Positions 1,582 to 60,364 of a DNA stretch of 64,000 bases are shown piece by piece. A program made the translations under genes and the position numbers. Source of the stretch: a virus (lineage: Duplodnaviria > Heunggongvirae > Uroviricota > Caudoviricetes). The stretch lies in the IMG/VR virus record IMGVR_UViG_3300046474_000237, positions 7,469 through 71,468 of that record; one strand, given 5' to 3'. The first letter of the stretch is position 1. Each line of letters begins with the position of its first letter. The notes beneath the pieces were generated by a model that ran no database searches, was not told the DNA's origin, and was given only the letters and a program-made list of their open reading frames with translations.

Positions 1582-1591
1582 TTGGTATAAG
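1582..1591 (+). promoter_or_regulatory. phage promoter motif TTGGTATAAG (extended -10)
   Basis: One of at least 16 occurrences of the same decamer, here followed by the conserved box gtaaagtatggaag. Confidence 0.55.
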
Positions 1592-1680
1592 TAAAGTATG
1601 GAAGAAACTCACTGATCGTCATCTCTAAGTTGATTCCCTTTCTTGGTAGTGCATTGGCTTAACAGTCAATTGGTCTTTGA

Positions 1681-1712
1681 CCGGGGCTTCTTTGAAGACC
1701 CCGGTTTTTTTT
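1681..1712 (+). terminator. hairpin plus T-run (terminator or attenuator in leader)
   Basis: ccggggcttctttgaagaccccgg followed by tttttttt. Confidence 0.45.
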
Positions 1713-1723
1713 GGATTCTTGAA

Positions 1724-2554
1724 ATGTCACAAACACAAATAGCAGAACAGATTCGTCACCTTGATTTTCAAACGCTTGGTGATGAGATGAAGCGATACGA
1801 GAAGAAGTACAACAGCGAGTACTTGATGCCAGGCCTACCGACTGTAATTCGCTTCGATGGTAACTCGTTCCATACATTCACCAAAGGTCTTACTAAACCC
1901 TTCGATTATGAGCTGGCCCAGACGTTCCAATGTACCGTGGATGACCTTATCAAAGAATTGAATCCTGATCTGGCATACCACCAGAGCGATGAGATAAGTC
2001 TTTTTTGGTTTAACAGCGATGCTAACGCACAACTGAACTTTGATGGTAAGGTCCAGAAATGGCTAAGCGTGTACGCTGCTAAGTGCTCGGTGATCTTTAA
2101 CAGCTATCTTCAAGGCTTTTTGCCAAACAAGTTCGCAGCACGTCCTGTGTTCGACGCTCGTGTATTTCAATTCCCAAAATGGGATCAGGCGTATGATTAC
2201 TTTGTTTGGCGTCAGTGGGATGCTCGTAAGAACAGTGTCAGCATGGCTGCGCACTCGGTCTTCAACAACTCAGAGTTGCTTCATAAAAACACTGCTGAGA
2301 AGATTCAAATGCTTCACGAAGTAGGCATTAACTTCTACGACTACCTTGAATGCTTCAGGCAAGGTACGTTCACTAGGAAGGTAAAGAGGCTGGTGGCTAT
2401 CGATGATCATACCTGGTCGTTGATTCCCGATGCTAACAAACCAGCTTCAAGAGAAGTAATGCGAAGTTCAATCGAGGTTATAAAGGAAGTTCCTAAGCTT
2501 ACGTCCCTGCCGGTAAGTCAAGGTTCATTCAAGATTTTTCATGAAGGTAAGTAA
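1724..2554 (+). CDS. Thg1-like protein (tRNA-His guanylyltransferase / tRNA 5'-end repair family)
   Basis: Motif LPTVIRFDGNSFHTF and overall similarity to the Thg1/TLP family. ATG at 1724 immediately after the hairpin. The six-frame ORF extends upstream to 1643. Confidence 0.6.
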   Translation: MSQTQIAEQIRHLDFQTLGDEMKRYEKKYNSEYLMPGLPTVIRFDGNSFHTFTKGLTKPFDYELAQTFQCTVDDLIKELNPDLAYHQSDEISLFWFNSDANAQLNFDGKVQKWLSVYAAKCSVIFNSYLQGFLPNKFAARPVFDARVFQFPKWDQAYDYFVWRQWDARKNSVSMAAHSVFNNSELLHKNTAEKIQMLHEVGINFYDYLECFRQGTFTRKVKRLVAIDDHTWSLIPDANKPASREVMRSSIEVIKEVPKLTSLPVSQGSFKIFHEGK

Positions 2555-3036
2555 TGGGTTTGGATATTCATATGAATTTGTCCTTCGGGATAAATGTAGG
2601 TAGTTCAGATAGTGCATGGGAAGAGTTCGAAGAATTCGAGAAAGCTCTCGCTAATGCTCTGGGTATAGAAGAGCTTGAAGATGGTGTCGAAGATGCTATT
2701 CAGGAATTGATTTTAAAAGAACTCAATATTAAGCGCCCTGAAGAAGAGTACTGTGAGAAAAATAGCAAGGAATACAGCGAGTACTGGAAGCGGAAAAATA
2801 ACGCTTTCGAAAACTATGGAGTAGGTATTACCAAGTATGGCACGTGTGACTATCCTGGTTATATTCTGTATACTAAGAATTTATCTCTAGGAGAAATCTG
2901 GGAACCAGCAGAGCTTGATAAAGAATGTCTTGGCGTAACACAAGATGATATCGATAGGCTGCGCAATTTTTGTGAGAAGTATGGTATAAGCTACACGGAA
3001 CCAGTAATGATGGTTTCAGCGTACTATAGTCACTAA
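2554..3036 (+). CDS. hypothetical protein
   Basis: TAATG overlap with the upstream gene. 160 aa, acidic. Confidence 0.5.
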   Translation: MGLDIHMNLSFGINVGSSDSAWEEFEEFEKALANALGIEELEDGVEDAIQELILKELNIKRPEEEYCEKNSKEYSEYWKRKNNAFENYGVGITKYGTCDYPGYILYTKNLSLGEIWEPAELDKECLGVTQDDIDRLRNFCEKYGISYTEPVMMVSAYYSH

Positions 3037-3101
3037 AAGTCAAGTCTTGTTGAGCCGCTCGTTCAATGAGATAATAGTGTTTTACAAGGAATAAGAAACA
3101 A

Positions 3102-6057: not shown

Positions 6058-6058
6058 T

Positions 6059-7139: not shown

Positions 7140-7148
7140 GGAATAACA

Positions 7149-9297: not shown

Positions 9298-9307
9298 TTG
9301 GTATAAG
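9298..9307 (+). promoter_or_regulatory. phage promoter motif TTGGTATAAG
   Basis: Conserved decamer upstream of the Hen1/Pnkp operon. Confidence 0.55.
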
Positions 9308-9389
9308 TAAGATATTGGACGGTGATTCGTCCCGTCATTAGATTGTCTAAGTTTTTACCTGTAAACCTCTCTTCCAAAAAGGTTAAATA

Positions 9390-10706
9390 ATGTCGGTTCT
9401 TACTCTGGGTTCTGTGAACCCTAAATTTTCATGGGTTATTCAGAAAAACCCTGCAACGATTCGTGAATCCAAAGATCCGTTCAAGAAATCCATCCGTCAA
9501 GGCTCAGTATACGGATGGTTTCTGAAAGGAGACAAAGCTTTTAGGTTGTGGTTCAAGGATCATGCTCTACACTGCTCGTTTGCTGAAGGTCGAGATCAGG
9601 AATTCGAATACTTGGATCGTACGCGGTATGCTTCACCATATCTCCCGATCAGTCTGATCACGAACTGTCTTGCAACGGCGTTCAAGGAATTGCAGGAAGA
9701 AGACACTGTTGCTCCTTTTAGCGCCTGGCTTGAGACAACGGTTGAGATTCGCAGTGCTAGCATGCTGAAACACATCACTCAACACTTCAATGGGACGTTC
9801 GGATTCGATGAAGGATATGGATTTCATTCCGAGCTGATTTCAGGTCATGCTTACAAAGTTCGCATTGTCGGACCTAGCGTGCATCACATGTTGAACGCAG
9901 CAATGGTTATTTTTCTCATGTTCTGTGTTTCGACAAAGGGCATATACATAAACCTCAAGGGTGATAACGTAGAGAAGTACATCAATGCAATTAACCGCAT
10001 CGATGCTCCGTACTTCATTCGATACCTCTTTAAACGGAATGTATTCTCGAATCGTGATACCTTTGCTAAAAACAAGTCGTTGCTCGATACGCCCCAAATT
10101 GATCTCTGGCACGGGGACACTCTCAGTCAACGTAAAGAGGCTATCTTCCCGCACTTGGGAGGAGGATCGGTCCTCATTGACATTGGGTGCGGCGAACTCA
10201 ATTATTCGATCCCGCTCAGTGCAAAGTATGAACAAGTCCTTGCGTATGAAGCGGATGAAGAAGTACGTGAGAATGCCGTGGGGAAAGCCACTGGTAGGGG
10301 AGTTGAGAATATTACCTTCAAAGAAGCAGCAACTCCTGAATCAGTTGACGATTGCAGCGCTCTATTCGATGGAGCTGATGTACTCATCACTGAAGTGCTT
10401 GAACACATGGAAAAGAGGGATGCACAACTTCTGATTCAAGCTGTTCTCAAGACTGACTTCAACAAGCTGGTTATCACCGTTCCTAATGCAGAATTCAACG
10501 TGAACTATCTGATGGAAGAAGGTCAATTCCGTCATGATGACCACAAGTGGGAACCTGGTTTCAAGGAATTTTCAAATTGGTTCACATCTATCGTCAGAGG
10601 TGAAAACCGTGTCGAGGGTATCGTTTGGACAACAGAAGGTATTGGCGACAAGGTTAACGGTGTTTCCACCTCAACGATGATTGTACTTACAAAAATCAAG
10701 GACTAA
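9390..10706 (+). CDS. hen1: Hen1-type RNA 3'-end 2'-O-methyltransferase (bacterial Hen1 of the Pnkp/Hen1 RNA repair system)
   Basis: SAM motif VLIDIGCGE. Metal-binding EVLEHM and the signature FRHDDHKWEPGFKEF (Hen1 FRHxDHxFE motif) in the C-terminal half. Length 438 aa as in bacterial Hen1. Directly upstream of pnkp. Confidence 0.7.
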   Translation: MSVLTLGSVNPKFSWVIQKNPATIRESKDPFKKSIRQGSVYGWFLKGDKAFRLWFKDHALHCSFAEGRDQEFEYLDRTRYASPYLPISLITNCLATAFKELQEEDTVAPFSAWLETTVEIRSASMLKHITQHFNGTFGFDEGYGFHSELISGHAYKVRIVGPSVHHMLNAAMVIFLMFCVSTKGIYINLKGDNVEKYINAINRIDAPYFIRYLFKRNVFSNRDTFAKNKSLLDTPQIDLWHGDTLSQRKEAIFPHLGGGSVLIDIGCGELNYSIPLSAKYEQVLAYEADEEVRENAVGKATGRGVENITFKEAATPESVDDCSALFDGADVLITEVLEHMEKRDAQLLIQAVLKTDFNKLVITVPNAEFNVNYLMEEGQFRHDDHKWEPGFKEFSNWFTSIVRGENRVEGIVWTTEGIGDKVNGVSTSTMIVLTKIKD

Positions 10707-10708
10707 GC

Positions 10709-13144
10709 ATGAAAATCGAAACTAAGCTTCATACCGTCTTTATTCTCGTCGGACCTTCGATGTGCGGTAAGAGCACGTTTGCAAGGCAGTTCCAACTTGC
10801 TCTCGATGAGCAGCTTCACAAGGTAGGTGTACCTGGCGTAGTTAAGGTAATAAGCTCCGATGCAGAGCGTCAGAGCCTCTATTCGCATGGGTCGCTACAT
10901 CGGTATTCCGGACTCATGAGCGAGGCGTCAGAGGCCGCATTCAAGGTTTTGATGGCGAAGTTTGAAGCTGCGATCATGTTCCCGATCAACAGCGAGTTTG
11001 TGATCATCGATACGACTGGTATGAATGACCAGTTTCGTAAGGAAGTAAAGAAGATTGCAGACAAGCACGAGTACCGTACTGAATTGGTTACTTTCGAGTA
11101 CACCAATAAGTCGTATGCATCTGAATCTACTCCTGCAGAAAAATTAGTTGTAGACAGTAGCGCAGCTCGTTTTAAACAGAAAGTTCTTCCTAATCTCGGT
11201 CGCAAAGAGCACGACGGTAACATTCGTATACGTGAACGTGATCCGAATCACTGGTTTGGTATCGAAGTTGAAATCGAAGACCTCGATATCTATGCAAAGA
11301 GCCATTTGTATCTCCCACTCCATGAAGAACTTGTAGTTATCGGAGATATACACGAGCACGTAACTGCATTTCAGACTCTTGACATGCAGCTTATGAAATC
11401 TCGTGATAGTAATGCTACCTCACCTAAGGAAGTACTGGTAGGAGATTATCTCGATAAAGGTGGAAACACTGAAGATACGATCATCGTCATCGAGAACTTC
11501 GTAGAGCAAGGCGGAATCATTGTTCATGGCAATCATGAGAGCTACGCTGTAAAGCGTATTAAAGGGGAGATTAAAAACCCCGATCTTGAACTGGAGGCAA
11601 AGTACATGTCTTCACTCAAGGTTCTCTTGAAAGATCCTGGCCTTGCAGCTAGAGTGGTAAATCTGTTCGATAATCACTCAGTTCCATTTCTGAAGGTAAT
11701 TGGAAGGGATGTACGGACCGTGTACGTAACTCACGCTCCTTGTGAGAACAAGTATCTCGGTAAGATGAGCAGCGATGCACTCAAGGCTCAGCGTAATCTT
11801 TTCGGACGTCGTGACAAAGACTACCGTGAAGCGTACAAGTTCATCTTCGAAGAGGCCGTGGGAAATCATCCCCTTCACGTATTTGGCCACGTAGCTCACA
11901 ACGCAAATAAACTGGAATTCCGTAACAAGATCTTCCTGGACACCGGCGCTGTGTATGGCGGTAAGCTTACGGCATTCGTGTACAAGAACAATCGGTATGG
12001 GTTCTACGAAGTCAAGACTGAATCGTTGGTTGAACATCAGAAAGAACTGCAGTCGAATCTGACTGTGCCTATCAATGCACCGGAACGTCCTTTTAGCATC
12101 TACGACTACAAGTTGTCTCCCGACGACATGAAGTTTCTAAATCGTACGCTGAAGAACGGCATTAAGTACATTTCTGGTACGATGGCCCCTGCTCCGTCAA
12201 CGGACACTCAGATTGAAAGTCTTGAAGCTGGGCTTGATTACTTTAATAGTAGAGGTGTTCAGTTCGTTGTTATCGAGCCTAAGTTTATGGGTTCTCGTTG
12301 TCAAGCATATCTGTACAAAAAGGATCCTTCGAAGTCGTTTCTTGTTTCTCGGAATGGTTTCAAGATTCGAATGACAGAACAGCTTCAGACGATGCTTGAC
12401 AATATTCCTAAACAACTGGATGATCTCGGGTTCGAATGGGAAGACGAGCTTATTCTTGATGGGGAACTTGAGCCCTGGACAACTCTCGGCAGGGGTCTGG
12501 TTGAAGAACAGTTCAAAGCGTATGAAGGCCTTGTACACTACGAACTTTCAACGCTGGCTCAAGACGAAGAGTTTAACAACTTGGACTTCAAGCAGAAAAT
12601 TGACGCTCAAGGTCTGTTGGAAAATGATCTTAAAACGTTCAGTGATACGCTTGATATCTACGCTCAAGATGGCGAACCGTTCTATAGCCCCTTTGCAATA
12701 CTGAAGTGTGATGGTAAAGTTACTAACACTCAAATCGAGCTTGCCCAGTCGTTCTTTAGTGTGAGCACTTACGATGCCCTGACAATCGATGTAACTGATC
12801 CAGAAGAAATTCAGCTGGCCAAAGAGTTCTTCGAGAAAGTCACTGTTGAGAAGAACATGGAGGGTGTCGTTATCAAACCATTGACTTTGAATGATGAAAT
12901 CGCACCGTACATGAAAGTCCGGAATGAAAATTACCTGACTCTCGTTTATGGTTACGACTACAAACGCCGCTATGAAGCCCTGTGCAAACAGAAGCGGATT
13001 GGTGGCAAACTCAAAGTCTCTATCCGGGAACATGAACTCGCAATGAAGATGCTTTCAGCGGATAATGGCCCTGCGGTAACTGAGCTTGTTGTGAAGATGA
13101 TTTCGCAGCTCAGTAAAGAGAAAGAGTTGGATCCGAGACTTTAA
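10709..13144 (+). CDS. pnkp: polynucleotide kinase-phosphatase with C-terminal ligase-like domain (bacterial Pnkp)
   Basis: P-loop GPSMCGKST. Calcineurin-type phosphoesterase motifs GDIHEH, GDYLDKGG, VHGNHE. C-terminal adenylyltransferase-like region around VVIEPKFMGSRC. 811 aa. Confidence 0.7.
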   Translation: MKIETKLHTVFILVGPSMCGKSTFARQFQLALDEQLHKVGVPGVVKVISSDAERQSLYSHGSLHRYSGLMSEASEAAFKVLMAKFEAAIMFPINSEFVIIDTTGMNDQFRKEVKKIADKHEYRTELVTFEYTNKSYASESTPAEKLVVDSSAARFKQKVLPNLGRKEHDGNIRIRERDPNHWFGIEVEIEDLDIYAKSHLYLPLHEELVVIGDIHEHVTAFQTLDMQLMKSRDSNATSPKEVLVGDYLDKGGNTEDTIIVIENFVEQGGIIVHGNHESYAVKRIKGEIKNPDLELEAKYMSSLKVLLKDPGLAARVVNLFDNHSVPFLKVIGRDVRTVYVTHAPCENKYLGKMSSDALKAQRNLFGRRDKDYREAYKFIFEEAVGNHPLHVFGHVAHNANKLEFRNKIFLDTGAVYGGKLTAFVYKNNRYGFYEVKTESLVEHQKELQSNLTVPINAPERPFSIYDYKLSPDDMKFLNRTLKNGIKYISGTMAPAPSTDTQIESLEAGLDYFNSRGVQFVVIEPKFMGSRCQAYLYKKDPSKSFLVSRNGFKIRMTEQLQTMLDNIPKQLDDLGFEWEDELILDGELEPWTTLGRGLVEEQFKAYEGLVHYELSTLAQDEEFNNLDFKQKIDAQGLLENDLKTFSDTLDIYAQDGEPFYSPFAILKCDGKVTNTQIELAQSFFSVSTYDALTIDVTDPEEIQLAKEFFEKVTVEKNMEGVVIKPLTLNDEIAPYMKVRNENYLTLVYGYDYKRRYEALCKQKRIGGKLKVSIREHELAMKMLSADNGPAVTELVVKMISQLSKEKELDPRL

Positions 13145-13160: not shown

Positions 13161-13169
13161 TGGTATAAG
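13161..13169 (+). promoter_or_regulatory. phage promoter motif TGGTATAAG
   Basis: Conserved motif. Followed by a ~330-nt highly structured leader. Confidence 0.5.
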
Positions 13170-13495
13170 TACCTGGGTAAAGTATAGTCATTCGCAACTA
13201 GCAGATGGTGGAGAAAGTAACTTTCTCTTTTACTCTCTGGGAACACTCAAAGAGTGTTTTACCCAGTACCAGGTACCAACCAACGAGTTTACCCAGTAGT
13301 AACTTAATACCGTAGATGTTTTACGGTAGCCTTGCAAGTATTTGTTTGTTTTAGCCGCATCAAAACGAAGGCCAGCGAGTAACTTTCTGGCATTAAACTT
13401 CGGGACCCCACGTGAATCGGCCTACGGCCGTTCTCGACCCGAACTACCCTAACGGGAACGTGTTGCAAGGAACACTTGTGAATAAGGAGAAATAA

Positions 13496-14055: not shown

Positions 14056-14064
14056 TGGTATAAT
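14056..14064 (+). promoter_or_regulatory. promoter -10 TGGTATAAT
   Basis: Variant of the conserved motif, 38 nt upstream of the nrdA ATG. Confidence 0.45.
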
Positions 14065-19159: not shown

Positions 19160-19169
19160 TTGGTATAAG
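19160..19169 (+). promoter_or_regulatory. phage promoter motif TTGGTATAAG
   Basis: Conserved decamer. Followed by hairpin ggagaaaaagttttctcc and a tRNA. Confidence 0.5.
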
Positions 19170-19228
19170 AGAAGTACGGAGAAAAAGTTTTCTCCTTGCT
19201 CTTTTTGTCTTCTTAACTTTTAGATTTT

Positions 19229-19312
19229 CCGACTGTGGTGAAATGGCATACACAGGAGACTTAAACCCTCCCGCCCTTGGGCATACCAGTTCGAGTCTGG
19301 TCAGTCGGACCA
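19229..19312 (+). tRNA. tRNA-Leu (anticodon TAA), long variable arm, CCA encoded
   Basis: Hand fold: acceptor ccgactg/cagtcgg, D-stem gtg/cac, anticodon stem-loop ggaga-cttaaac-cctcc, variable hairpin gccc..gggc, T-arm accag-ttcgagt-ctggt, then acca. Confidence 0.65.
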
Positions 19313-37223: not shown

Positions 37224-37233
37224 TTGGTATAAG
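37224..37233 (+). promoter_or_regulatory. phage promoter motif TTGGTATAAG
   Basis: Followed by box tttattaggaagc and a leader hairpin ccccgta/tacgggg. Confidence 0.5.
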
Positions 37234-37358
37234 TTTATTAGGAAGCATTGTATTCATTCTATGATGTTTCTTTTTCCCCGTACTAACCTACGGGGTCCTT
37301 CAACGCTTAAGCTTTGTCTTAGGCTGCAGAACTTAAACGTTGTAGATAAGGAGAAATA

Positions 37359-41250: not shown

Positions 41251-41279
41251 GGCGCTTGATTTTGAGCGCCTTTTTTTTG
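41251..41279 (+). terminator. rho-independent terminator
   Basis: ggcgcttgattttgagcgcc followed by ttttttttt. Confidence 0.65.
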
Positions 41280-41296: not shown

Positions 41297-41306
41297 TTGG
41301 TATAAG
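41297..41306 (+). promoter_or_regulatory. phage promoter motif TTGGTATAAG
   Basis: Conserved decamer 18 nt after the terminator. Confidence 0.55.
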
Positions 41307-41360
41307 AATAATGGTAATAATTCTTAGACTCAATACCACTGTTCCGCAAAGGGGAGCGTC

Positions 41361-41594
41361 ATGACTTGCCACGAAAAGAAGTACGATCAACTGACTGCTA
41401 AAAACGAAGCCGTGCGCTTAACGCGGAAAGCCCGGTTTCAAAAGCCAAAGACTGGGACGGCTCTTGGATATTACAAAGCGTACTTCTGCAAAGAATGCGA
41501 CGCTTGGCATATCAAGCAAGAAACCCCAAAACAAAAAACACGAACTGAAGATCAAACAAATTTATGTCCAAAATTATCATTCACACCTGCGTGA
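41361..41594 (+). CDS. hypothetical protein
   Basis: RBS ggggag. 77 aa. Confidence 0.45.
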   Translation: MTCHEKKYDQLTAKNEAVRLTRKARFQKPKTGTALGYYKAYFCKECDAWHIKQETPKQKTRTEDQTNLCPKLSFTPA

Positions 41595-42967
41595 ACGCAG
41601 AAGACAATGCAATGCTACAGGCGTTGTATTCCCGTAGCATTGACAGCGTGACCGACCATATTCAGAAGCTTGAAGAGGTCGGTTCAAGCAAATTCATGTC
41701 CCAGTACTACCTGGGATATGGTCATGCATCAATTGGAGACTGTGGAACTGAGACGATGTACTTCGAGGGTATCTCAATGCTTGCAGCAAAGGCTATTGAA
41801 GATAACCCTCTTTTCGTAGGCCAGGAATGTAGCTCACGCTATATCGATTTCAGCTATCAGGCTTTCTACGATCCGATGGAGAAGAACTCCGAAGATAGTG
41901 GGAAAGTTGGAAATCTGTACTCCGAGTACCGGAAATTCTACGTCGAAAGTCTTGAACCCTTGAAGGAAGACTTGCGTAAGCGTTTCCCAATCAAGGAAGG
42001 TGACAAGCCAAATGTGTATGAAAAGGCTATTGCTGCTCGTGCTTTTGATATCCTGCGTGGCTTTCTGCCTGCGGGTGCTACTACCAATGTGGCTTGGAGT
42101 GGACGACTTAGCAACGCTGGTGAGCATCTCATTTGGATGATGCACCATCCGCTTTGGGAAGTTAAACGCTTAGGCGCAGAGGGATATAGACAGATGCAGG
42201 CAAAGTATCCCAATTCGTTCCGTCTGGATTACGCAATCGTAGCTAATAGTGATATTCCTGAATCGTTCGAACACGAACTCAGAAATATTGAGGGTGACGA
42301 AGTGTTTGAGTTCAACTCTGACTTCAACAACTTCTACGCTCAGTACCAGGAAGTGTGCGGGTACGAAAAGATTGCTAAATACTACGAGATACAAACTCTT
42401 GTCGGAACTCTTGAAGACGAGGATTGTAGAAGCTTGCTTCCTGCATTCAAGGACCGTCCAAAACGAACTAAGCTTCACAAACATTCTTTGGTATCCCAGT
42501 CTACTGTTTGGATCGAGACTCGAATTGATTTCGGTTCATTCCGGGATATTCAACGTCACAGAAACGGCTATTGTGGAATGCCTTTGGTTACTGGAGAGTA
42601 CGGCCTCCATCCTTGGTACTATGAAAACCTGACGTCTGAACTACAAAAGAAGGCTGATGAACTCTTGGAGAAAGTCAAAGATACGTATGACAGGTTGGAT
42701 CTGTGTGAAACTGATAATGATTTCTTAGCATTCGGCCAGTACATCCTGCCGATGGGAAACATTGTTCAGGTAGCTATGAAATACACGATTCAGCAAGCCA
42801 TGTATGTAGCAGAGCTTCGTTCGGGTAAGACTGTTCATGCTACTGCTCGTCCTTTCGCTAAGACAATCGGGGCGTATTTGGAAAAGTATGGCATTCCCGT
42901 GTACTACGACAAAGACGTAGATGATTGGACTGTTCGCAGGGGGGAGCAGGACATTGTCAAGAAGTAA
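41564..42967 (+). CDS. thyX: flavin-dependent thymidylate synthase (ThyX), long form
   Basis: YGHASIGDCGTE, QECSSRYIDF and the RHR motif DIQRHRNGYCGMPL. Confidence 0.65.
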   Translation: MSKIIIHTCVNAEDNAMLQALYSRSIDSVTDHIQKLEEVGSSKFMSQYYLGYGHASIGDCGTETMYFEGISMLAAKAIEDNPLFVGQECSSRYIDFSYQAFYDPMEKNSEDSGKVGNLYSEYRKFYVESLEPLKEDLRKRFPIKEGDKPNVYEKAIAARAFDILRGFLPAGATTNVAWSGRLSNAGEHLIWMMHHPLWEVKRLGAEGYRQMQAKYPNSFRLDYAIVANSDIPESFEHELRNIEGDEVFEFNSDFNNFYAQYQEVCGYEKIAKYYEIQTLVGTLEDEDCRSLLPAFKDRPKRTKLHKHSLVSQSTVWIETRIDFGSFRDIQRHRNGYCGMPLVTGEYGLHPWYYENLTSELQKKADELLEKVKDTYDRLDLCETDNDFLAFGQYILPMGNIVQVAMKYTIQQAMYVAELRSGKTVHATARPFAKTIGAYLEKYGIPVYYDKDVDDWTVRRGEQDIVKK

Positions 42968-42974: not shown

Positions 42975-42984
42975 TTGGTATAAG
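42975..42984 (+). promoter_or_regulatory. phage promoter motif TTGGTATAAG
   Basis: Conserved decamer. Confidence 0.5.
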
Positions 42985-43039
42985 CAAAGTGTCAAGGCAA
43001 TTGCCCTTGGCACTTCTTTCTTTAGCTGAGGAGACTCAA

Positions 43040-43504
43040 ATGATCAAATCCGGTAACTACGTAATCATCCCCATCGGTGTTTCCTGCTTCGTTATCGAAG
43101 AAACCGAAAATGGTCTTAAGCATGTCGGAGACGATCCCGGCAAGTCTTTGGAAGAAACCCTCAACCACATCCGTACCGTAATGCACGGAATGGCTAAGCG
43201 TGAGCGTCGTAACAAAGATATCAACACCCGTAACTGGAAGCGTTTTCAGGCTACGAAAGAGTTCATGGGTAAAGAAGAACTCGCAATGACTGAAACAATG
43301 TGGGCAGACTTCGATCTAGAAAAAGAAAACGAAAACTGCGAACGGTTCGCGGCTGCTTTCGAAAAATCGTTCTTCGAAGTGACGGATCTGATGCTGGAAC
43401 ACAACGTCACTATTCGTGCTATGGATGAAGACAGCGAAGAACCCAAGGGCGTTAGCCTGGAGTCTGTCAAAAGCATGCTTGGCAATCTCGGCAAATTGCA
43501 GTAA
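43040..43504 (+). CDS. hypothetical protein
   Basis: RBS gaggag 7 nt before the ATG at 43040. The six-frame ORF starts at 42989. Confidence 0.5.
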   Translation: MIKSGNYVIIPIGVSCFVIEETENGLKHVGDDPGKSLEETLNHIRTVMHGMAKRERRNKDINTRNWKRFQATKEFMGKEELAMTETMWADFDLEKENENCERFAAAFEKSFFEVTDLMLEHNVTIRAMDEDSEEPKGVSLESVKSMLGNLGKLQ

Positions 43505-46382: not shown

Positions 46383-46419
46383 GAAACCGGGCTTAAACGC
46401 TCGGTTTCTTTTTTTTTAG
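46383..46419 (+). terminator. rho-independent terminator
   Basis: gaaaccg...cggtttc followed by a T10 run. Confidence 0.65.
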
Positions 46420-46434: not shown

Positions 46435-46444
46435 TTGGTATAAG
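46435..46444 (+). promoter_or_regulatory. phage promoter motif TTGGTATAAG
   Basis: Followed by box taaattgtaggaaac. Confidence 0.55.
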
Positions 46445-46502
46445 TAAATTGTAGGAAACTAATTATATTAATTTTCACAAACCAAAAGGACCAAGAGAAA
46501 AA

Positions 46503-46859
46503 ATGTTCATCGTTCAACTCATTCTGGTAATTTTTGCAATTTTCACTTTGGCTATCATCTGCGTTGCATACACGCAGTGCAAGATGAACACCGAAGCATG
46601 GAAGGACAGGGTTGCGTACAAGCTTCAAAGATCGTTCCACCTGCAAGAGCGAATTGCAGTTCAACTCACCGATTTGCATTTCCCCACCTTCCAGACTGTC
46701 TTTGCAGATCAGCCGCATCCGGATATCGCCGCTCACCAGATTTTCTGGGACGAGGGTGTGCAAGAGTTTTTGAACCGCACGCATTACTCGCCTGAGCTTG
46801 GCTTCCCCTACCATATGTTCTCTCGTCAGAACTATGGCCGTATCAACATTGAAGTTTAA
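46503..46859 (+). CDS. hypothetical protein
   Basis: 118-aa ORF. Confidence 0.5.
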   Translation: MFIVQLILVIFAIFTLAIICVAYTQCKMNTEAWKDRVAYKLQRSFHLQERIAVQLTDLHFPTFQTVFADQPHPDIAAHQIFWDEGVQEFLNRTHYSPELGFPYHMFSRQNYGRINIEV

Positions 46860-48013: not shown

Positions 48014-48612
48014 CTAACAAAGTAATTCTCTTGATCGACATGGACGGCGTTATGGCCGATTGGACCAAGCGAGTCCTGGCAACCTACGCTGAAAAATACC
48101 CTGATCGATTCGTGCCTAAGCAAGAAGATGTAACAGAGTTTTTCATTGAAGGGTTGTTTCCGGAAGAGCACAGAAATGATCTGCTCGCAATTCCTCGTAC
48201 AAAGGGGTTCTATTCTTCCCTAGATACGATTCCAGGTGCAATCGAAGCACTAAAGGACATTGAAGAGAATTGTAAGGACTTTATCGAACCTTACATCTGC
48301 AGCGCACCTGAGCTTGACTTCGAAGACATGCTCTGTCATTCTGAGAAGGCTCAGTGGGTTAAGAAAACCCTTGGAGATTTCTGGCTTAAGAAAATGATCC
48401 TTACCAAGGATAAAACTGTAGTTCGCGGGGATTTCATCATCGATGACAAACCTGTGATTACTGGTGCTATGGAACCCCAGTGGGAACAGATTCATCTGAA
48501 ACAACCTTATACCCCCAGCACGGCTGAGATTGTTTTCGAATGGAGTCAGTGGACTCATTTGAAGGCTCAACTTCGTTATATTGCTGAGAGCAATTATTTC
48601 GGACTTAATTAA
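48010..48612 (+). CDS. 5'(3')-deoxyribonucleotidase (HAD superfamily, NT5C-like)
   Basis: KVILLIDMDGVMADW (DxDGV motif). Confidence 0.6.
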   Translation: MTNKVILLIDMDGVMADWTKRVLATYAEKYPDRFVPKQEDVTEFFIEGLFPEEHRNDLLAIPRTKGFYSSLDTIPGAIEALKDIEENCKDFIEPYICSAPELDFEDMLCHSEKAQWVKKTLGDFWLKKMILTKDKTVVRGDFIIDDKPVITGAMEPQWEQIHLKQPYTPSTAEIVFEWSQWTHLKAQLRYIAESNYFGLN

Positions 48613-48623
48613 GAAGTCCGATT

Positions 48624-48633
48624 TTGGTATAAG
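48624..48633 (+). promoter_or_regulatory. phage promoter motif TTGGTATAAG
   Basis: Followed by box agagttgtaggac. Confidence 0.5.
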
Positions 48634-48726
48634 AGAGTTGTAGGACAAACTTACTTTTATGTTTAGGGTAGGTGACTTACATGCTCTCTTGCATATAAGC
48701 ATCACCCTAACTTAAAGTGTACAAAC

Positions 48727-50247
48727 ATGAACGTAACTCGTATATCAGGTCTAACCCCAGTAGTAGCTAACACAACGTTTAGCGGACGTTGTATTTTCGA
48801 TGAAGGCGGGGTCCTTCAACCAGCGTCAGGCGTAACAGTAACTTTTGCAAATGCGCTGATTGACGCTAGCGATTATCAGATTATTTTCGACCTATCAAAA
48901 GGCGGAACAATTGCTGGTTCAATCTACAATGATTATCACTCAGGAGTATGGTACGGCGCTGACTTCACTGGTCTGAGTCAGACTGGTACAAAAGTCCAAG
49001 CAGCCTTTGATTCGCCTCTCACCGCAAACGTTAAACTGGTGCGAGGGATGTATCTATGTTCAGGTGTGCAGCTAAAGCTGATCGATAAGCACCTTATGTG
49101 TTCAACCTATCGTATGGGTGGACAAAATGATGGTGTAATTTTGCGCTGGTCACAAGACATGGGCGCTGGCACTGCTTGTCTACAGATGTATAACGGCGGA
49201 AGGAAGCTTGATACAGCTAAGTACCGTGGATTCAAGATCATGGGTCCTGGTCAGAAGGGCGCTGTAATTGGTTCTACTGGTTGTATGATGGACGGTATCA
49301 TCTTTGGTAATGGCGGTAATCACAAGTTCGATGCTAAAGATCTTTTCGTAACAGGCGTGCGATTCGCATATACAGCCTGGACGAATGACGGCCATAGCTC
49401 ACTTGATAATGTTGGTGGAACTGGTAATTTCGCAACTTGGAATATGCTAAGTACCGGTGGTGACTGGACTTGGAAGAAGTGCTCAAGCAATGCAGAGCAA
49501 CGTGCAGCATTTTATTTGCCGAAGAACGGAAGCTTCGGTGTACATGCAGACATGGACGACTATTTTAACGGATATGCTCCCTACTTCGTCTATCAGGACA
49601 ATGTCATTGATCCACGTCTAGCATCTACAGCCACAGCTGGTCTGACAGTTTCCTCATCCTGGAGACGTATCGGCTGTGAGAGACTTGGTAATGCATTCAT
49701 TAACCTGTTGCCGACTGATTCGAATCTATTCCAACTAAAGCTTAGCGATAGCGGTTGGGATTCATTTGTAAGTGGGGCAGCAGTGATTCCCGGCGAAGCA
49801 CAAGACTTCGCAATAAAGGTTGGTTATATTGAAGGACTTGATTTAAACGATACTCTGGAGTCTGGTGGTGCTGGAACTCTTTCAGCATTTAATTCTGGAG
49901 TAATCAAAGTTCTAAATAGTAGTTCACGAGGCATCTCAGCTACTAGACTTCACAACCTGCCCCCTGTAGGAAAGACATTTTTGGCTGGCACTACTAAGGC
50001 GCGTATAATTCCGCAGACTTATAATATGCCAGTTATCAATATTCCTGCAGGGCAAACTATTGGAACATACACTGCTTCAGACTTTGAAGCGTGCAGTAAG
50101 TCAAACTGGTTTCCTCAGATTAGAAATGATTTAGGTGTAGATGATGCATCTTTATCTATTAGCGGTAATGTTGTAAAGGTAACACTTTCTGAAGCACTGA
50201 CGTTTGCTGTAACTTTTATTCTAAATCTTTACGGACCAGGAAACTGA
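48727..50247 (+). CDS. putative tail fibre / tailspike-like beta-helix protein
   Basis: 506 aa, rich in G/T/S/N with repetitive beta-strand-like segments and no enzymatic motifs. Assignment by composition only. Confidence 0.3.
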   Translation: MNVTRISGLTPVVANTTFSGRCIFDEGGVLQPASGVTVTFANALIDASDYQIIFDLSKGGTIAGSIYNDYHSGVWYGADFTGLSQTGTKVQAAFDSPLTANVKLVRGMYLCSGVQLKLIDKHLMCSTYRMGGQNDGVILRWSQDMGAGTACLQMYNGGRKLDTAKYRGFKIMGPGQKGAVIGSTGCMMDGIIFGNGGNHKFDAKDLFVTGVRFAYTAWTNDGHSSLDNVGGTGNFATWNMLSTGGDWTWKKCSSNAEQRAAFYLPKNGSFGVHADMDDYFNGYAPYFVYQDNVIDPRLASTATAGLTVSSSWRRIGCERLGNAFINLLPTDSNLFQLKLSDSGWDSFVSGAAVIPGEAQDFAIKVGYIEGLDLNDTLESGGAGTLSAFNSGVIKVLNSSSRGISATRLHNLPPVGKTFLAGTTKARIIPQTYNMPVINIPAGQTIGTYTASDFEACSKSNWFPQIRNDLGVDDASLSISGNVVKVTLSEALTFAVTFILNLYGPGN

Positions 50248-52058: not shown

Positions 52059-52982
52059 ATGTTCAACAACAAGTACAACAACCGTCGCTGGATCTACGGA
52101 ATGATCGTAGGTGCACTGATCACGTGGCTCGTCATGCACAATGCACACGCCCAATCCCTCACCGTGGCAACTGGTGGACCGAAGGGAACGTACTCGGCAA
52201 TGTTCAAGGAACTGAATCAACGCTGCGGGCTTGGCGAAATCAAGGAACTGAACAGCCTGGGTTCGAACGACAACATCGACAAGCTGGTGGCCAATCAGGT
52301 CAACGGTGCAATCGTTCAGATGGACGTTATCTTCTTCCGTTCGAAGACCGAAGATCTGTCGAAGATCAAAACCCTGTTCTCGCTTCATCCGGAACAAGTT
52401 CACTTCCTTGCACGCGGCGATGGTGTGAAAGAAGGTGGCTTCATGGGTATCGGCGGAAAGGAAGTCAAGTTCCAGACGATCTCGGATCTGAATGGTCGTA
52501 ATATTGGTGCGGCTGGAGGTTCGGTATTGACGGCCAAGGTTGTCAAGGCTCAAGCCGGTGTGAACTACAACGTGCAAGAGTTCAATACGAACGCAGATGC
52601 TCTCAAAGCGTTGCAGGACAAGACTATCGATGCGGTGGTTATCGTCGGCGGTCAGCCCATGAAAGAAATCGAAGCTCTGCCGCCGATCTACAAGGTCTTG
52701 GCAATTCCCGCTCCGCTGCAAGACAAGCTCAAGAGCGTGTATCAGCCTGCACGGGTCAGCTATCGCAACCTGAATGCTGCTGGTGTTCAAACCGTGTCGG
52801 TGAGTTCGCTTCTGGTGACGCGTGAGTACAAGTCGGCCAAGTTCGTAACGGCGCTCAAGAACTATCGTGAGTGCTTCTACAACAACCTGGACGACCTTCA
52901 GGAGACGACTGGTACGAGCCCTGCTTGGCAAAATGTTGTCAAGTCCGATCAAGGTAAGTGGACGTGGAATGATCTGAAATAA
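52059..52982 (+). CDS. periplasmic solute-binding protein, TAXI/TRAP-type (COG2358-like)
   Basis: Signal peptide, then SLTVATGGPKGTYSAMF resembling the TAXI ATGGxxGxY motif. GC-rich. Confidence 0.4.
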   Translation: MFNNKYNNRRWIYGMIVGALITWLVMHNAHAQSLTVATGGPKGTYSAMFKELNQRCGLGEIKELNSLGSNDNIDKLVANQVNGAIVQMDVIFFRSKTEDLSKIKTLFSLHPEQVHFLARGDGVKEGGFMGIGGKEVKFQTISDLNGRNIGAAGGSVLTAKVVKAQAGVNYNVQEFNTNADALKALQDKTIDAVVIVGGQPMKEIEALPPIYKVLAIPAPLQDKLKSVYQPARVSYRNLNAAGVQTVSVSSLLVTREYKSAKFVTALKNYRECFYNNLDDLQETTGTSPAWQNVVKSDQGKWTWNDLK

Positions 52983-53164
52983 TGGAAAACTTCGCTCACA
53001 TCTACCTGTGTCTTGCAGCGGCTTACTTCATTATGCTGTCAATCTTTTACAAGCAAGATGGTATAAGCGATGTAGTGCAAGATCTTATCGGTTCCATTCT
53101 TTGGCCTATCTGTGCGGTCATGGATCTGTTCTACGAGCTTAAGCCGAAAGACAATCTTCGTTAA
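52982..53164 (+). CDS. small membrane protein
   Basis: ATGA overlap. TM helix. Confidence 0.4.
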   Translation: MENFAHIYLCLAAAYFIMLSIFYKQDGISDVVQDLIGSILWPICAVMDLFYELKPKDNLR

Positions 53165-55529: not shown

Positions 55530-55541
55530 TTTTGTAGTTGT

Positions 55542-55551
55542 TGGTATAAGC
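55542..55551 (+). promoter_or_regulatory. phage promoter motif TTGGTATAAG
   Basis: Followed by box ctaattgtgaagg and hairpin gccacat/atgtggc. Confidence 0.5.
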
Positions 55552-55626
55552 TAATTGTGAAGGACATTCATAGCCACATCGAGTGTTCTTCATTTCCTTT
55601 TTATGTGGCTTTGTTTTAGGTTCAAG

Positions 55627-55890
55627 ATGTCAGCACTTAATATTCAAACAGCAGCACGTAACGTAGTTCGTAACACCGTCAACCTCCGTCTTGAAAGCGA
55701 TGTGACGATCAGTGATATGGCAGCTGCAACTAAGCTCTCAGAAAGCACTATCCGTCGCATCGAAAAGTTCAGCCGCCTTGGTGCACTGGCTGGTAACTAT
55801 CGTCCGCAACTCTCGACGCTGGTCAAGCTGGCTAACGCAGCAGAAGTTACGCCGCAAGACTTCATTACGCAAGAACTTACCGTAGCGTAA
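55627..55890 (+). CDS. HTH-type transcriptional regulator (XRE-like)
   Basis: ISDMAAATKLSESTIRRIEKF helix-turn-helix. Confidence 0.45.
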   Translation: MSALNIQTAARNVVRNTVNLRLESDVTISDMAAATKLSESTIRRIEKFSRLGALAGNYRPQLSTLVKLANAAEVTPQDFITQELTVA

Positions 55891-56771: not shown

Positions 56772-56780
56772 TGGTATAAT
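56772..56780 (+). promoter_or_regulatory. promoter -10 TGGTATAAT upstream of the tRNA-like repeat array
   Basis: Variant of the conserved motif, 10 nt before the first repeat unit. Confidence 0.45.
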
Positions 56781-56789
56781 AGATTTAGT

Positions 56790-57610
56790 GAGCCGTTCTT
56801 ATGTTGGGTTATCAATTGGTGATTACTCCCCGGCATTACTCTTTTGCTCACTCACGCTTTAATCCTCGTATTGATTCTAAAGAGTCAGTACCTGATTTAA
56901 AGTTTATGGACCGATAGAATGGGTTATCTAACTCCAAGACGCAAATACAGGTTCGAGTCCTGTACTCCGCTTCTGTTGCGGAGTTCATCTAATTGGCAGG
57001 ATGGCGACTCCTGATTCCATTCGATTACTTGTCCATCCCTCTTTCACGGGCCGTTAGAATATCGATTATCTATCTTACAGGCAAACTCGATATTCACTTC
57101 TTTGCCCGTTTCAAGTTTCAAACGAACCGAACGTACTAAGGGTTATCTACTTCGACTAGTTAGAACGAAAGCATTACGTAGTTTCTGGAAACAGAATAGT
57201 GCCTGAGTCTAATACTGCTATACTCTGCTTGAGCTAAAGCTATTGTGGGATGAACTCCCATATCTCCCTTGTCAATCACTTGTTCGTTTTTTCAGTTTGT
57301 GAGCCGTTTAGAATTGGGTTATCCTTTTAAGATACTCCCCCAGTTCATTTCTTTTGCTCACTTCAATTTTACGGACCGTTAGTATTAGGTTATCTACTTT
57401 TGGGAAGTCGGGACGTTGGTTCGAATCCAACTGCAGCCTTGAGGGTTGTATAGCTTAGTGGATAGAGCACGTAACATTTCCTAGTACGCCTTTTGTCCGT
57501 TTCAGTTTTAAATACAGAGCCGCTTTAATTAGATTATCTTCTCCTATATCGAAGGACTGCCCAGAGGGGGCTCTCGAAAGAGACGGGTTCGACTCCCAGT
57601 CTAAACATCT
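56790..57610 (+). ncRNA. array of seven tRNA-like repeat units (candidate Y-RNA-like ncRNAs) upstream of rsr
   Basis: Units start at 56790, 56908, 57048, 57123, 57301, 57373 and 57517, each with a box like GRRCCGTTAGAATnGGTTATCT. Units 1-3 are pairwise homologous to units 5-7, suggesting a block duplication. Units 2 and 6 carry a T-arm (ggttcgagtcc / ggttcgaatcc) followed by a hairpin and a D-arm-like agcttagtggatagagc, without a complete cloverleaf. Confidence 0.45.
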
Positions 57611-58011: not shown

Positions 58012-58051
58012 CGAAGGCCTGTTTCCAACCCGGATTCAGGCCTTCTTTTTT
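58012..58051 (+). terminator. rho-independent terminator
   Basis: gaaggcctg...caggccttc followed by ttttttt. Confidence 0.6.
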
Positions 58052-58093
58052 TAGTGTTTTAAAACTTTGTTCCCAATCCAAAAGGAGCCTCAA

Positions 58094-59725
58094 ATGTCTT
58101 TCAATACCCTCGCAAAGAATACGAATACCCGAGTAGCAGCACGTACCACACCGCAGAACAAGCCTGCTGGCAATGCACCTGTAGCACAGGTTAAGAACAA
58201 CGCTGGTGGCTTTGTGTTTGAGATCTCTGGCATTCAAAAGCTGGATCGATTCCTCATCATCGGCACGAGCGGCGGTACGTTCTATGCTAACGAAAAGGAT
58301 CTCACGAAGCAGAACACTGACGAGATCGTGGCTCTGATCAAGGCTAACGGCAAGGTTGTGGTTGACCGTGTGGTTGAGATCAGCCAAGCCGGTCGTGCCA
58401 AGAACAATGACTATGCGCTTCTGGTCATGGCTCTGGTCTTCACCCACGGCGATGTTGCAACCAAGATGTATGCAAAGGATAAGTTGAACCTCGTGGCTCG
58501 TACTGGCACGCACTTCATGCACTTCGTTGCATTCTCAAATGGGATGCGAGGTTGGGGCCGTTCGCTTAAGAGCGTAGTTCAGAACTGGTATTCCTCGAAG
58601 GATACCGATAAGCTGGCATTCCAGATCGTGAAGTACAAGCAACGTGACGGCTGGTCCCACAAGGACATCATGCGTCTGGCTCACGTTAAGCCTGGTACTG
58701 ATCCGGTTCGTCAGAACCTGTACAAGTTCATCAACAAGGGTTCAGAGTCGCTGACGCAAGGTGACCTCGTGCCTCAACTTCTGATTGCTGCAGAGCAAGC
58801 CAAGACTGCAGATACGAAGACGTTGATCAAGCTGATCCAGGATTTCAAGCTCACGCACGAAATGATCCCGAATGAGCAAAAGAATGACCCGAAGGTTTGG
58901 GAAGCTCTCGTGCCTCACATGGGTCTGGGTGCGCTGGTTCGTAACCTGAACAAGCTCACGGCAGTTGGTCTGATCAAGCCTTTCTCGGAAACGAGCAAGA
59001 TTGTCAGTGTCAAGCTTCATGACGTAGAAGCAATTCGTCGTGAACGCCTACATCCTATGTCCATTATCGTAGCCCAAAAGGTTTACGCAAAGGGTCAGGG
59101 GGATAAGGGTTCGCTTGTATGGTCACCTGCACGCAACATCGTGTCGGATCTGGAAGATGCGTTCTATGTTTCGTTTGAAGCAGTAGAACCGTCCGGTAAG
59201 AACATTCTTCTTGCTCTGGACGTATCTGGTTCGATGAGCTGTGCAATCCCCGGAGCGCCACTGTTGAGCTGTGCTGAAGGCACTGCAATCATGGCAATGG
59301 TCACAGCTCGTACTGAGCCTTGGACCGAAATCCGTGGTTTCACGAGCGGTAGGAATGGCTTCAAGGATCTGGGTATCACGAAGAACGATACCTTGGCTAC
59401 AGCTTGCAGCAAGGTCCGCGACAATAACTTCGGTGGAACGAACTGTGCACTGCCGTTCGAGTATGCGCTTCAAAACAAGTGGGACGTGGATGCTGTCTGT
59501 GTTTACACGGATAATGAAACGTGGTCTGGTGGCCAACACGTGTTCCAAGCAGCACGCAAGTACCGTCAAGGTATGAACAAGCCTGAAGCTAAGCTTATCA
59601 CTGTTGGTATGGCAGTGAACAACTTCAGCATTGCTGACCCGACTGACCGCAATATGCTGGACGTGGTTGGTTTCGATACGGCAACTCCGAGGTTCATTTC
59701 GGAATTTGTGGCTGGCAACCTGTAA
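58094..59725 (+). CDS. rsr: Ro60/Rsr orthologue (TROVE domain plus vWA domain)
   Basis: LDRFLIIGTSGGTFYA and VARTGTHFMHFVAFSNGMRGWGRSLKSVVQNWY closely parallel the Ro60 TROVE motifs. C-terminal vWA MIDAS motif LALDVSGSMS. RBS aaaggag. The six-frame ORF starts at 58067. Confidence 0.8.
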   Translation: MSFNTLAKNTNTRVAARTTPQNKPAGNAPVAQVKNNAGGFVFEISGIQKLDRFLIIGTSGGTFYANEKDLTKQNTDEIVALIKANGKVVVDRVVEISQAGRAKNNDYALLVMALVFTHGDVATKMYAKDKLNLVARTGTHFMHFVAFSNGMRGWGRSLKSVVQNWYSSKDTDKLAFQIVKYKQRDGWSHKDIMRLAHVKPGTDPVRQNLYKFINKGSESLTQGDLVPQLLIAAEQAKTADTKTLIKLIQDFKLTHEMIPNEQKNDPKVWEALVPHMGLGALVRNLNKLTAVGLIKPFSETSKIVSVKLHDVEAIRRERLHPMSIIVAQKVYAKGQGDKGSLVWSPARNIVSDLEDAFYVSFEAVEPSGKNILLALDVSGSMSCAIPGAPLLSCAEGTAIMAMVTARTEPWTEIRGFTSGRNGFKDLGITKNDTLATACSKVRDNNFGGTNCALPFEYALQNKWDVDAVCVYTDNETWSGGQHVFQAARKYRQGMNKPEAKLITVGMAVNNFSIADPTDRNMLDVVGFDTATPRFISEFVAGNL

Positions 59726-59748
59726 GTTGTAAGGTTGTAGTAAGTAAG

Positions 59749-59775
59749 AGCCGGGTTTCGATCCGGCTTTTTTTA
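59749..59775 (+). terminator. rho-independent terminator
   Basis: agccggg tttcgat ccggct followed by ttttttt. Confidence 0.65.
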
Positions 59776-59784
59776 GCTTCTGGA

Positions 59785-60346
59785 GAAAAAACTGGACACA
59801 TGTCCAAAAAACTGGACAAGTCCGTTTTTTACTTTTCCTTTTAAATCAAGGACTTACAGAGGGTGTGTCCAGTGTGTCCAATTTCTCTAAAAAAAACTGG
59901 ACAGCTGAAACCATTGCTGCATAAGGCTTAGAGCCAGATTGTCCAGTTTTTTTGCCTTTTTTCCAAAAACCATACCTCACTTTCTTTTTGACTAAATAAA
60001 AAACAAAAAAGGAAAAACATAGGGTTCACCCTAACAGTCCAGGAATATGGGGGTACTATATATATATTTATATTTGAACTTTTAAAAAAATATATTTATA
60101 TATAAGAGAGTGTTTTCCTTTTTGGTAAGTTTTTTATTTCTAATAGAAAGTGAGGTATGGTTTTTGGAAAAACACGAAAAAAACTGGACAAAATCGCTGT
60201 GAGCCTTATAAACAAAGGCTTAGAGCCTGTCCAGTTTTTTATTTGGAAATTGGACAAACTGGACAGCAATGCTATAACTCATTGTTTTATATATGTTTTC
60301 ACGTTTCATAGAAAACGGACATTTCTGGACATGTGTCCAGTTTCTT
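59785..60346. repeat. iteron-rich ori-like repeat element, copy B
   Basis: About 13 AACTGGACA/TGTCCAGTT iterons. Palindromic arms ccatacctcactt (59971) and aagtgaggtatgg (60149). AT-rich core (60045-60110) nearly identical to copy A. Confidence 0.7.
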
Positions 60347-60354
60347 GTGATTCC

Positions 60355-60364
60355 TTGGTATAAG
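60355..60364 (+). promoter_or_regulatory. phage promoter motif TTGGTATAAG
   Basis: Conserved decamer immediately after repeat copy B. Confidence 0.55.

Follow-up and report, generated by a model that had tools for sequence, protein, structure and literature searches.

Among the described phage sigma cascades, the middle promoter of SPO1 reads AGGAGA-N17-TTTnTTT and the phiEco32 promoter reads TAATGTATA, and these phages are not known to carry a polymerase of their own. The bacterial factor sigma70 is established to bind two flipped-out promoter bases, A-11 and T-7, the second of them in a pocket (restated in PMC7598289). Here we describe a recurrent motif, TGnTATAAG, in a 64,000-nucleotide stretch of a virus of the Caudoviricetes (positions 7,469 to 71,468 of IMG/VR record IMGVR_UViG_3300046474_000237; this whole stretch is hereafter called the window). 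The reading of the motif as an extended -10 promoter of the sigma70 family, with G at -7, is strongly supported by its sequence; we infer the promoter role from motif statistics, orientation, conservation and start-site geometry.

The decamer TTGGTATAAG occurs 13 times in the window, always on the + strand, where shuffled sequences lead one to expect 0.05 copies, and the looser TGGTATAAK (TGGTATAA(G/T)) occurs 18 times, again only on the + strand, against an expectation of 0.74. All substantial open reading frames (ORFs) of the window lie on this strand as well. A position matrix spanning -37 to +9, trained on 137 sites of other phages only, retrieves 16 window sites at 12 bits or more on the + strand and none on the - strand (Table 1). 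The initial annotation had listed at least 16 copies, all on the + strand and in intergenic gaps. Its 16 coordinates are correct, save that the decamer placed at 55542 begins at 55541, and both strand and location are borne out, the latter for 14 core sites, which lie in gaps or 4-82 nucleotides (nt) past the preceding stop codon, with 18-330 nt to the following gene or transfer RNA (tRNA), all co-oriented with the genes. The number also stands, with a changed membership: the copy at 14056 is probably a chance match, and two copies, at 2982 and 53059, both within small ORFs, had been missed. This leaves about 17 predicted promoters in 64 kb, or roughly one per 4 kb.

Relatives were found by comparison of the PolA protein after DNA searches gave none: a near-identity DNA search of the phage collection with the window gave no match, there being no close DNA relative among deposited phages, and a distant DNA search matched NAMPT genes only. 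By PolA protein, the nearest deposited phages are Salmonella phage Arash (47% identity) and Vibrio phages D69, D181 and D148 (45%), and the closest IMG/VR contig is one of 181 kb whose PolA is 91% identical to that of the window. Metagenome contigs of the Joint Genome Institute, up to 94 kb long, carry proteins identical to the window's. The clade that carries the motif comprises Arash, D69 and about 45 uncultivated contigs of 165-192 kb with a G+C content (GC) of 39-55%; it contains two cultured lineages, that of Arash and that of D69, D148 and D181.

Across this clade the motif keeps both its sequence and its strand. The commonest 10-mer of Arash (53% GC) is GGTATAAGTA, and TGGTATAAG occurs there 18 times on the strand of the long gp18c-gp184c replication and metabolism block and not once on the other, most copies having a ribosome-binding site and an ATG about 20-40 nt downstream. 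D69 has 24 copies of TGnTATAAG on the early strand versus one on the other, with n mostly T or C (TGT/TGC); such variation at n is what the "TGn" of an extended -10 element predicts, and it therefore supports that reading. A set of 45 IMG/VR loci with the clade's polymerase gene at their centre (39-55% GC) has about 150 motifs on the strand opposite the polymerase versus nine on the same strand, and the conservation as a whole spans phages with about 46% PolA identity and 39-55% GC. At closer range, four relatives at 68-81% nucleotide identity keep the sites at 1583, 9299 and 13161 in position, with an invariant core and diverged flanks, and the first of these is accompanied in all four by the invariant block GGTATAAGTAAAGTATGGA. 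A variant contig that reaches to the left of the window (L014) has four copies on its minus strand before minus-strand genes, and the motif thus turns with the genes. No TGnTATAAG is present in the structural-gene block (L009) that lies to the right of the window.

The anatomy of the sites was examined with TATAAG set at -12 to -7, which puts TG at -15/-14. When one position at a time was relaxed in 1.37 Mb of clade DNA, with both strands counted, each specified base of TGnTATAAG proved to be under selection. TG at -15/-14 and A-11 are invariant in the clade's promoter class, whereas base -13 is unspecified (G in the window and in Arash, mostly T or C in D69). The counts at -7 are 228 for G, 20 for T, 19 for A and 24 for C, against an other-strand background of 10-17, so that G takes the place of the T expected of an extended -10 element, T being at background; the sigma-type family fits and the host sigma70 consensus does not. 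A predicted pyrimidine/purine start falls 7 nt past the hexamer, matching the canonical distance of a sigma-type promoter. T is found at -1 in 12 and A at +5 in 11 of the 14 core sites; +1 is a purine in all 14, and indeed in 17/17 window sites, and +3 to +9 are purine-rich. Over 166 non-redundant clade sites, T-1 is present in 82%, a purine at +1 in 94% and G at -13 in 81%. The initial annotation had seen in this region a conserved downstream "TGT-GGAA box" as an additional element. The conservation is real, but because T-1 and the purine at +1 fall at the canonical distance from the hexamer, the box is on sequence grounds the predicted start site (T-1, R+1) together with a purine-rich initial transcribed region, and no separate element. 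The accompanying statement that there is no conserved -35 is roughly right, although a weak AT-rich element is present at -36 to -28, which over the 166 clade sites reads TTCAAT(W)(W)T at 0.2-0.55 bit per position. We accordingly describe the putative promoter as a weak -35 TTCAAT, a spacer of about 17-18 bp, T-15 G-14 n, T-12 A T A A G-7, 5-6 A/T-rich nt, T-1 and a purine at +1. The proposal of a phage-specific extended -10 class (TGnTATAAG) is thereby upheld, by the co-orientation, the 18:0 strand ratio in Arash, the variable n in D69, the conserved positions and the start 7 nt past the hexamer.

Could the motif be an oriented intergenic signal other than a promoter, for example a site of RNA processing, the operator of a DNA-binding protein or a target for homing or recombination? 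Sites just past stop codons, some of them followed by hairpins, would suit such a signal. We nevertheless regard it as highly improbable, given the match to the -10/extended -10 consensus with an n that varies between phages and the -35-like element and pyrimidine/purine start at canonical distances; moreover, the motif of Arash lies only about 25-40 nt from start codons and the hairpins are not family-wide.

Because the window carries no sigma or polymerase gene, the reader of the motif has to be sought among its relatives. Arash gp206 (1525 aa) contains beta domains and N-terminal beta' domains (Rpb2_3, Rpb2_6, Rpb1_1, Rpb1_2), and gp216 the C-terminal beta' domain (Rpb1_5). Two further proteins, gp10 and gp196 (D69_0011 and D69_0246), belong to the sigma70 family, with Sigma70 r2/r3 domains. 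The 181-kb contig closest to the window encodes polymerase beta and the N-terminal part of beta' as separate genes, plus a gp196-like sigma. The beta and N-terminal beta' parts, which are one 1525-aa protein in Arash and D69, are two genes in the window's sub-clade, with about 3 kb of inserted ORFs between them (L053:10001-17509 versus L003:30093-34670). The genes for the polymerase and the gp10-like protein belong to the structural module on the late strand.

The gp196-like sigma aligns with SigA and other primary sigmas from region 2 through region 4, and its -10-reading helix, LTYAGWW(V/I)xQR, is invariant in nine diverse members. The gp10-like protein has a Sigma70_r3 match; its -10 helix lacks the equivalents of the canonical Y430, W433 and W434, differs between Arash and D69 and is far more divergent than the gp196-like helix. 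The sub-clade of the window itself lay beyond the reach of a pattern search for the gp10-like sigma. The gp196-like gene lies on the strand opposite the early block and, to judge from its upstream sequence, has its own host-type promoter with T at -7: TTGACT-N17-TACTAT in the Arash clade, TTGC(A/T)T..TGaTAC(A/T)(T/C)T in the window's clade, TTCAAT-N17-TGtTATAAT in the IMG/VR loci L077 and L078, and TTGACA or TTGACT types in some others. In more than 30 loci, no TGnTATAAG was found upstream of this gene. Its promoter is often followed by a hairpin in the 5' untranslated region, GGAGAC..GTCTC in the window's clade (L068-L085, L123-L142; for example L137:990-1101).

In the mechanism we propose, the TGnTATAAG promoters would drive one long block of genes in the same orientation, for replication, nucleotide metabolism, RNA repair and tRNAs, with transcription re-initiated along the block, since most sites lie a few bases past the preceding stop codon. 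A sigma70-family holoenzyme would recognize them, with sigma region 3.0 reading TG, region 2 reading the -10 box and the start lying 7 nt downstream. Host sigma70 holds T-7 in a pocket, and the invariant G-7 therefore argues against the host factor; it would mark these promoters as targets of a phage sigma instead. The non-virion gp196-like sigma would be the likeliest reader, made first by a different holoenzyme from its own sigma70-type promoter and then turning on the TGnTATAAG regulon; a position outside the regulon, behind a different promoter, is what one expects of a factor that activates it. Where the initial annotation had thought of a phage-modified RNA polymerase, its phage-specific reading is retained, and the relatives point to a sigma70-family factor encoded by the phage, perhaps working with a polymerase that the phage also encodes, as the likely reader in place of a "modified" host enzyme. 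Both which sigma reads the motif and whether it uses the host core or the phage multisubunit polymerase are points that we infer from sequence; for the gp196-like sigma of the clade as reader, our confidence is somewhat better than even.

Several points weigh against this reading. Searches of the window by tblastn with the sigma and polymerase proteins of Arash and D69 gave no match. TGnTATAAG fits the sigma70 extended -10 consensus at 8/9 specified positions, so that some use by host holoenzyme is possible. The Arash paper offers no promoter analysis. Finally, the mass spectrometry of that paper places gp206 (3516 spectra), gp216 and gp10 in Arash virion preparations, which would fit an injected holoenzyme reading early promoters.

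This last point leads to an alternative in which the motif is the early promoter of an injected, virion-packaged holoenzyme, gp206 and gp216 with the gp10-like sigma, in parallel to the virion polymerases of phiKZ and AR9, and the gp196-like sigma then serves the late genes. It is helped by the absence of gp196 from the excerpted portions of the Arash virion protein table, by the location of the polymerase and gp10-like genes among structural genes, by the r3 match of the gp10-like protein, which could read TG, and by the highly conserved AT-rich early motif of about 10 nt, centred at -10, of jumbo phages with virion polymerases (PMC7598289). However, late transcription would then depend on the gp196-like sigma as an early gene, yet the motif is never found before that gene, whose promoter, on the other strand, is of the sigma70 type. 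The gp10-like -10 helix, moreover, differs between Arash and D69 where the promoter is identical in both, and the Arash "virion" list runs to 116 proteins and includes ribonucleotide reductase and RNA ligases, so that carry-over is possible. On balance we consider the packaged-holoenzyme explanation unlikely.

Less probable again is that these are ordinary host sigma70 extended -10 promoters, perhaps with a phage co-factor, in which G-7 tunes strength. The TG at -15/-14, TATAA at -12 to -8, the canonical start distance and the TT-A-type -35 are all compatible with sigma70, and in Thermus phage P23-45 host polymerase works at extended -10 promoters that lack a -35. Against this, T-7 is one of the two bases that sigma70 pockets bind, and it stays at background next to 228 G in phages that differ in host and GC; over the first 60 kb of the window, a generic sigma70 -35/-10 scan found no enrichment over shuffles; and the clade encodes two sigma factors and its own polymerase.

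As to the core enzyme, we hold it possible, at well below even confidence, that TGnTATAAG is read by the phage's own bacterial-type multisubunit polymerase (beta fused or adjacent to the N-terminal part of beta', plus the C-terminal part of beta') with a phage sigma70-family factor. If true, the virus would possess a self-contained, sigma-dependent machine for transcription, with a canonical -35 / TG / -10 layout and a -7 pocket re-specified for G in place of T, unlike the sigma-less split polymerases of phiKZ and AR9, and it would provide a natural experiment on the base specificity of the sigma -7 pocket.

A second motif, TAAAATA, favours the late (structural-gene) strand across the clade, with 163 copies versus 46 on the other strand (Arash, D69, L009 and L017-L061; 11:4 in Arash and 27:5 in D69), and is often placed 20-35 nt ahead of a late start codon; the + strand of the window has no copy. 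Some Arash copies read CTTATACCCTAAAATA, overlapping an inverted GGGTATAAG. These sequence counts suggest that TAAAATA is a candidate separate late promoter, like T4 TATAAATA, and TGnTATAAG would therefore belong to an early or middle class. Taken together, the sequences point to a possible three-tier programme: a sigma70-type promoter for the phage sigma, TGnTATAAG for replication, metabolism and tRNA genes, and TAAAATA for late genes. A T4-late-like reading of TATAAGTA was considered and rejected, as both gene class and strand are wrong (no copy on the Arash structural-gene strand and none in the L009 late block).

The initial annotation had also held that the promoters typically stand right after intrinsic terminators. 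This does not hold in the window, where a hairpin and T-run directly precede only three of 17 sites (41298, 46436 and 48625), and we rejected it as a rule; promoters right after terminators are common in D69. Of the four leader hairpins it named, the stem at 32460-32498 clearly beats shuffled sequences (z -4.1), as does one near the last of them, at 55557-55593 (z -2.8), and that at 19177-19210 does so more weakly (z -1.9), whereas 34742-34790 is no better than shuffles (z +0.8). Further leader stems that beat shuffles are at 42985-43020 (z -3.8), 48640-48682 (z -3.4) and 28657-28690. At four sites (28642, 32451, 48625 and 55542) the first base of the stem coincides with the predicted +1, in keeping with putative 5'-terminal protective stem-loops. 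Leader hairpins are found at eight of 16 window sites versus 11 of 80 controls; across the 166 clade sites there is no enrichment (22% versus 19%; minimum free energy p = 0.91), and Arash has none. The leader hairpin was therefore rejected as a part of the promoter, and the hairpins are read as lineage-specific additions, since the window is enriched in them but Arash and the clade are not. Past the promoter at 13161, a stem-loop at 13210-13228 with the loop GTAAC is followed by a T-rich tail (window 13176-13240); the stem keeps its pairing through compensatory changes in four relatives, and the next ORF does not begin until 13496. A small RNA of about 55 nt is one possibility for this element, an attenuator another. 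Site 19161 is likewise followed, close to the promoter, by a hairpin with a T-run.

Table 1. Copies of the motif in the window, with matrix scores and surroundings; promoter assignments are predictions.
Feature	Position	Strand	Score (bits)	Sequence	Context
Predicted promoter	1583..1598	+	33.3	exact decamer; TGGTATAAG at 1583-1591	predicted start A at 1598; before Thg1-like gene 1649-2554
Weak or possible internal promoter	2982..2997	+	10.8	TGGTATAAG	in 3' end of ORF 2554-3036, 5' of PolA-exo/UDG gene (3102); kept only in closest relative L062
Predicted promoter	9299..9314	+	21.4	exact decamer	5' of Hen1/Pnkp RNA-repair genes 9390-13144
Predicted promoter	13161..13176	+	18.4	caTGGTATAAG	17 nt past Pnkp stop codon
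Probably not a member	14056..14064	+	1.2	TGGTATAAT	2 nt before nrdA ATG; flanks do not fit
Predicted promoter	19161..19176	+	29.9	exact decamer	5' of tRNA-Leu (19229-19312) and ORFs from 19329; hairpin 19178-19195
Predicted promoter	28642..28657	+	27.9	exact decamer	5' of tRNA-Met (28707-28779) and AAA/Lon-like gene 28884-30962
Predicted promoter	32451..32466	+	26.2	exact decamer	26 nt past stop codon of ORF 31583-32425
Predicted promoter	34733..34748	+	31.8	exact decamer	before ORF run 34785/34890-37197
Predicted promoter	37225..37240	+	28.6	exact decamer	before ORF 37359-38330
Predicted promoter	41298..41313	+	23.2	exact decamer	right after terminator 41251-41270; before ORF 41361 and thymidylate-synthase-like gene 41564-42967
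Predicted promoter	42976..42991	+	27.6	exact decamer	9 nt past stop codon at 42967; before ORF 43040-43504
Predicted promoter	46436..46451	+	33.5 (best in window)	exact decamer	right after terminator 46383-46408; before ORF 46503-46859
Predicted promoter	48625..48640	+	31.1	exact decamer	overlaps T-run of hairpin 48599-48621; before ORF 48727-50247
Probable promoter	53059..53074	+	20.7	TGGTATAAK match	within 60-aa ORF 52982-53164, 5' of ORF 53203
Predicted promoter	55542..55557	+	23.2	exact decamer; exact TTCAAT -35	before helix-turn-helix protein gene 55627-55890
Variant site	56772..56787	+	14.2	TGGTATAAT; TTCAAT-like -35	heads 1.3-kb ORF-poor stretch, before Ro/TROVE gene
Predicted promoter	60356..60371	+	16.6	exact decamer	predicted start 18 nt 5' of dCMP-deaminase gene 60389-60757; after second CTGGACA repeat cluster

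The genes around these sites include a split family-A DNA polymerase, a class I ribonucleotide reductase, a Hen1/Pnkp RNA-repair pair, NAD-salvage enzymes, a Ro/TROVE protein and 21 tRNA genes. RNA repair and tRNA maintenance are represented by the Thg1-like tRNA-His guanylyltransferase, whose gene site 1583 is predicted from its position to drive, by the Hen1 N-domain with the Pnkp kinase-phosphatase-ligase and by a putative Ro/Y-RNA pair; beside the 21 tRNAs, this set points to a heavy investment against tRNA-targeting host defences. One tRNA, at 27076-27151, has the anticodon CTA (an amber suppressor, labelled "Pyl" by ARAGORN) and, at 69 bits, the top Rfam tRNA score in the window, and TAG could be read through or recoded in this phage. 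The 1.3-kb ORF-poor stretch headed by the variant site at 56772 contains, just 5' of the Ro/TROVE gene (58094-59725), a match to YrlA (Y RNA-like) at 57387-57502 that scores 30 bits (E 5.6e-4), under the Rfam gathering score of 69; a phage-encoded Y RNA partner of Ro is plausible here.

Two near-duplicate elements of about 250 bp lie at 1000-1560 and 59790-60345 of the window. In each, CCATACCTCAC / GTGAGGTATGG enclose an AT-rich palindrome (...ATATATTTATATTTGAACTTTTAAAAAATATATTTATATAT...), and clustered repeats of AAACTGGACA / TGTCCAGTTT flank the element, 17 + 10 heptamers over the window. An TTGGTATAAG promoter follows each element, and the left one lies between divergent promoters in the variant contig L014; in appearance the two elements resemble iteron-type replication origins or a regulatory hub. 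L014 also encodes a reverse transcriptase (RVT_1, 269 aa; L014:3769-4578), some 0.7-1.5 kb leftward of the point where the window begins and within a divergent minus-strand block with TGGTATAAG promoters; the window differs from L014 in this region, and the gene may belong to a retron or to an element of the diversity-generating retroelement type.

The motif offers a transcription map of about 17 predicted starts in 64 kb for an almost unstudied clade of large phages, with genomes of about 170-190 kb. Its G-7, where all well-studied primary sigmas bind T, makes a specific prediction of altered sigma specificity, and the clade is a possible supply of orthogonal promoter/sigma pairs for engineering. 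The kind of object is still a sigma-type phage promoter, of specialist rather than revolutionary interest. Our literature search on TATAAG-type phage promoters and on sigma-dependent phage multisubunit polymerases found nothing on the Arash/D69 clade, and we found no description of its TGnTATAAG promoter in the searchable literature; we regard it as a known kind with a twist at -7.

The closest known form is the bacterial sigma70 extended -10 promoter (TGnTATAAT). The two share TG at -15/-14, a free base at -13, T-12 A-11 T-10 A-9 A-8, a purine start 7 nt downstream after a pyrimidine and a low dependence on the -35. They differ in the essentially invariant G for pocket-bound T at -7 (228 G : 20 T), in TTCAAT for TTGACA and in the probable reader, a phage sigma. 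The likeness to the cascades of SPO1 (gp28) and phiEco32 (gp36) lies in a sigma gene with a host-type promoter, the product of which is predicted to redirect transcription to a phage promoter class heading many operons; the promoter sequences are unrelated, and the clade described here adds a multisubunit polymerase and a second sigma.

Late promoters of the T4 type (TATAAATA, gp55) likewise have a dominant -10-type element, and TATAAGTA is one position off TATAAATA, but the sites in this clade stand before genes for replication, metabolism and tRNAs instead of late genes, and need the upstream TG. The middle and late promoters of Thermus phage P23-45 are also of an extended -10 class without a strong -35; there, in contrast, phage gp39 and gp76 retarget the host holoenzyme, and the -10 still follows the host consensus. 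The early promoters of the virion polymerases of phiKZ and AR9, lastly, resemble the sites described here in having a conserved AT-rich motif of about 10 nt near -10 before early operons, and beta/beta'-like subunits have been reported in virions (PMC7598289). Those polymerases have split subunits, no sigma70-family factor and different motifs (PMC7598289), whereas the present clade has a single polymerase set, with beta and the N-terminal part of beta' joined in Arash and D69 and encoded separately in the window's clade, together with bona fide sigma70-family proteins and promoters in the canonical -35 / TG / -10 arrangement.

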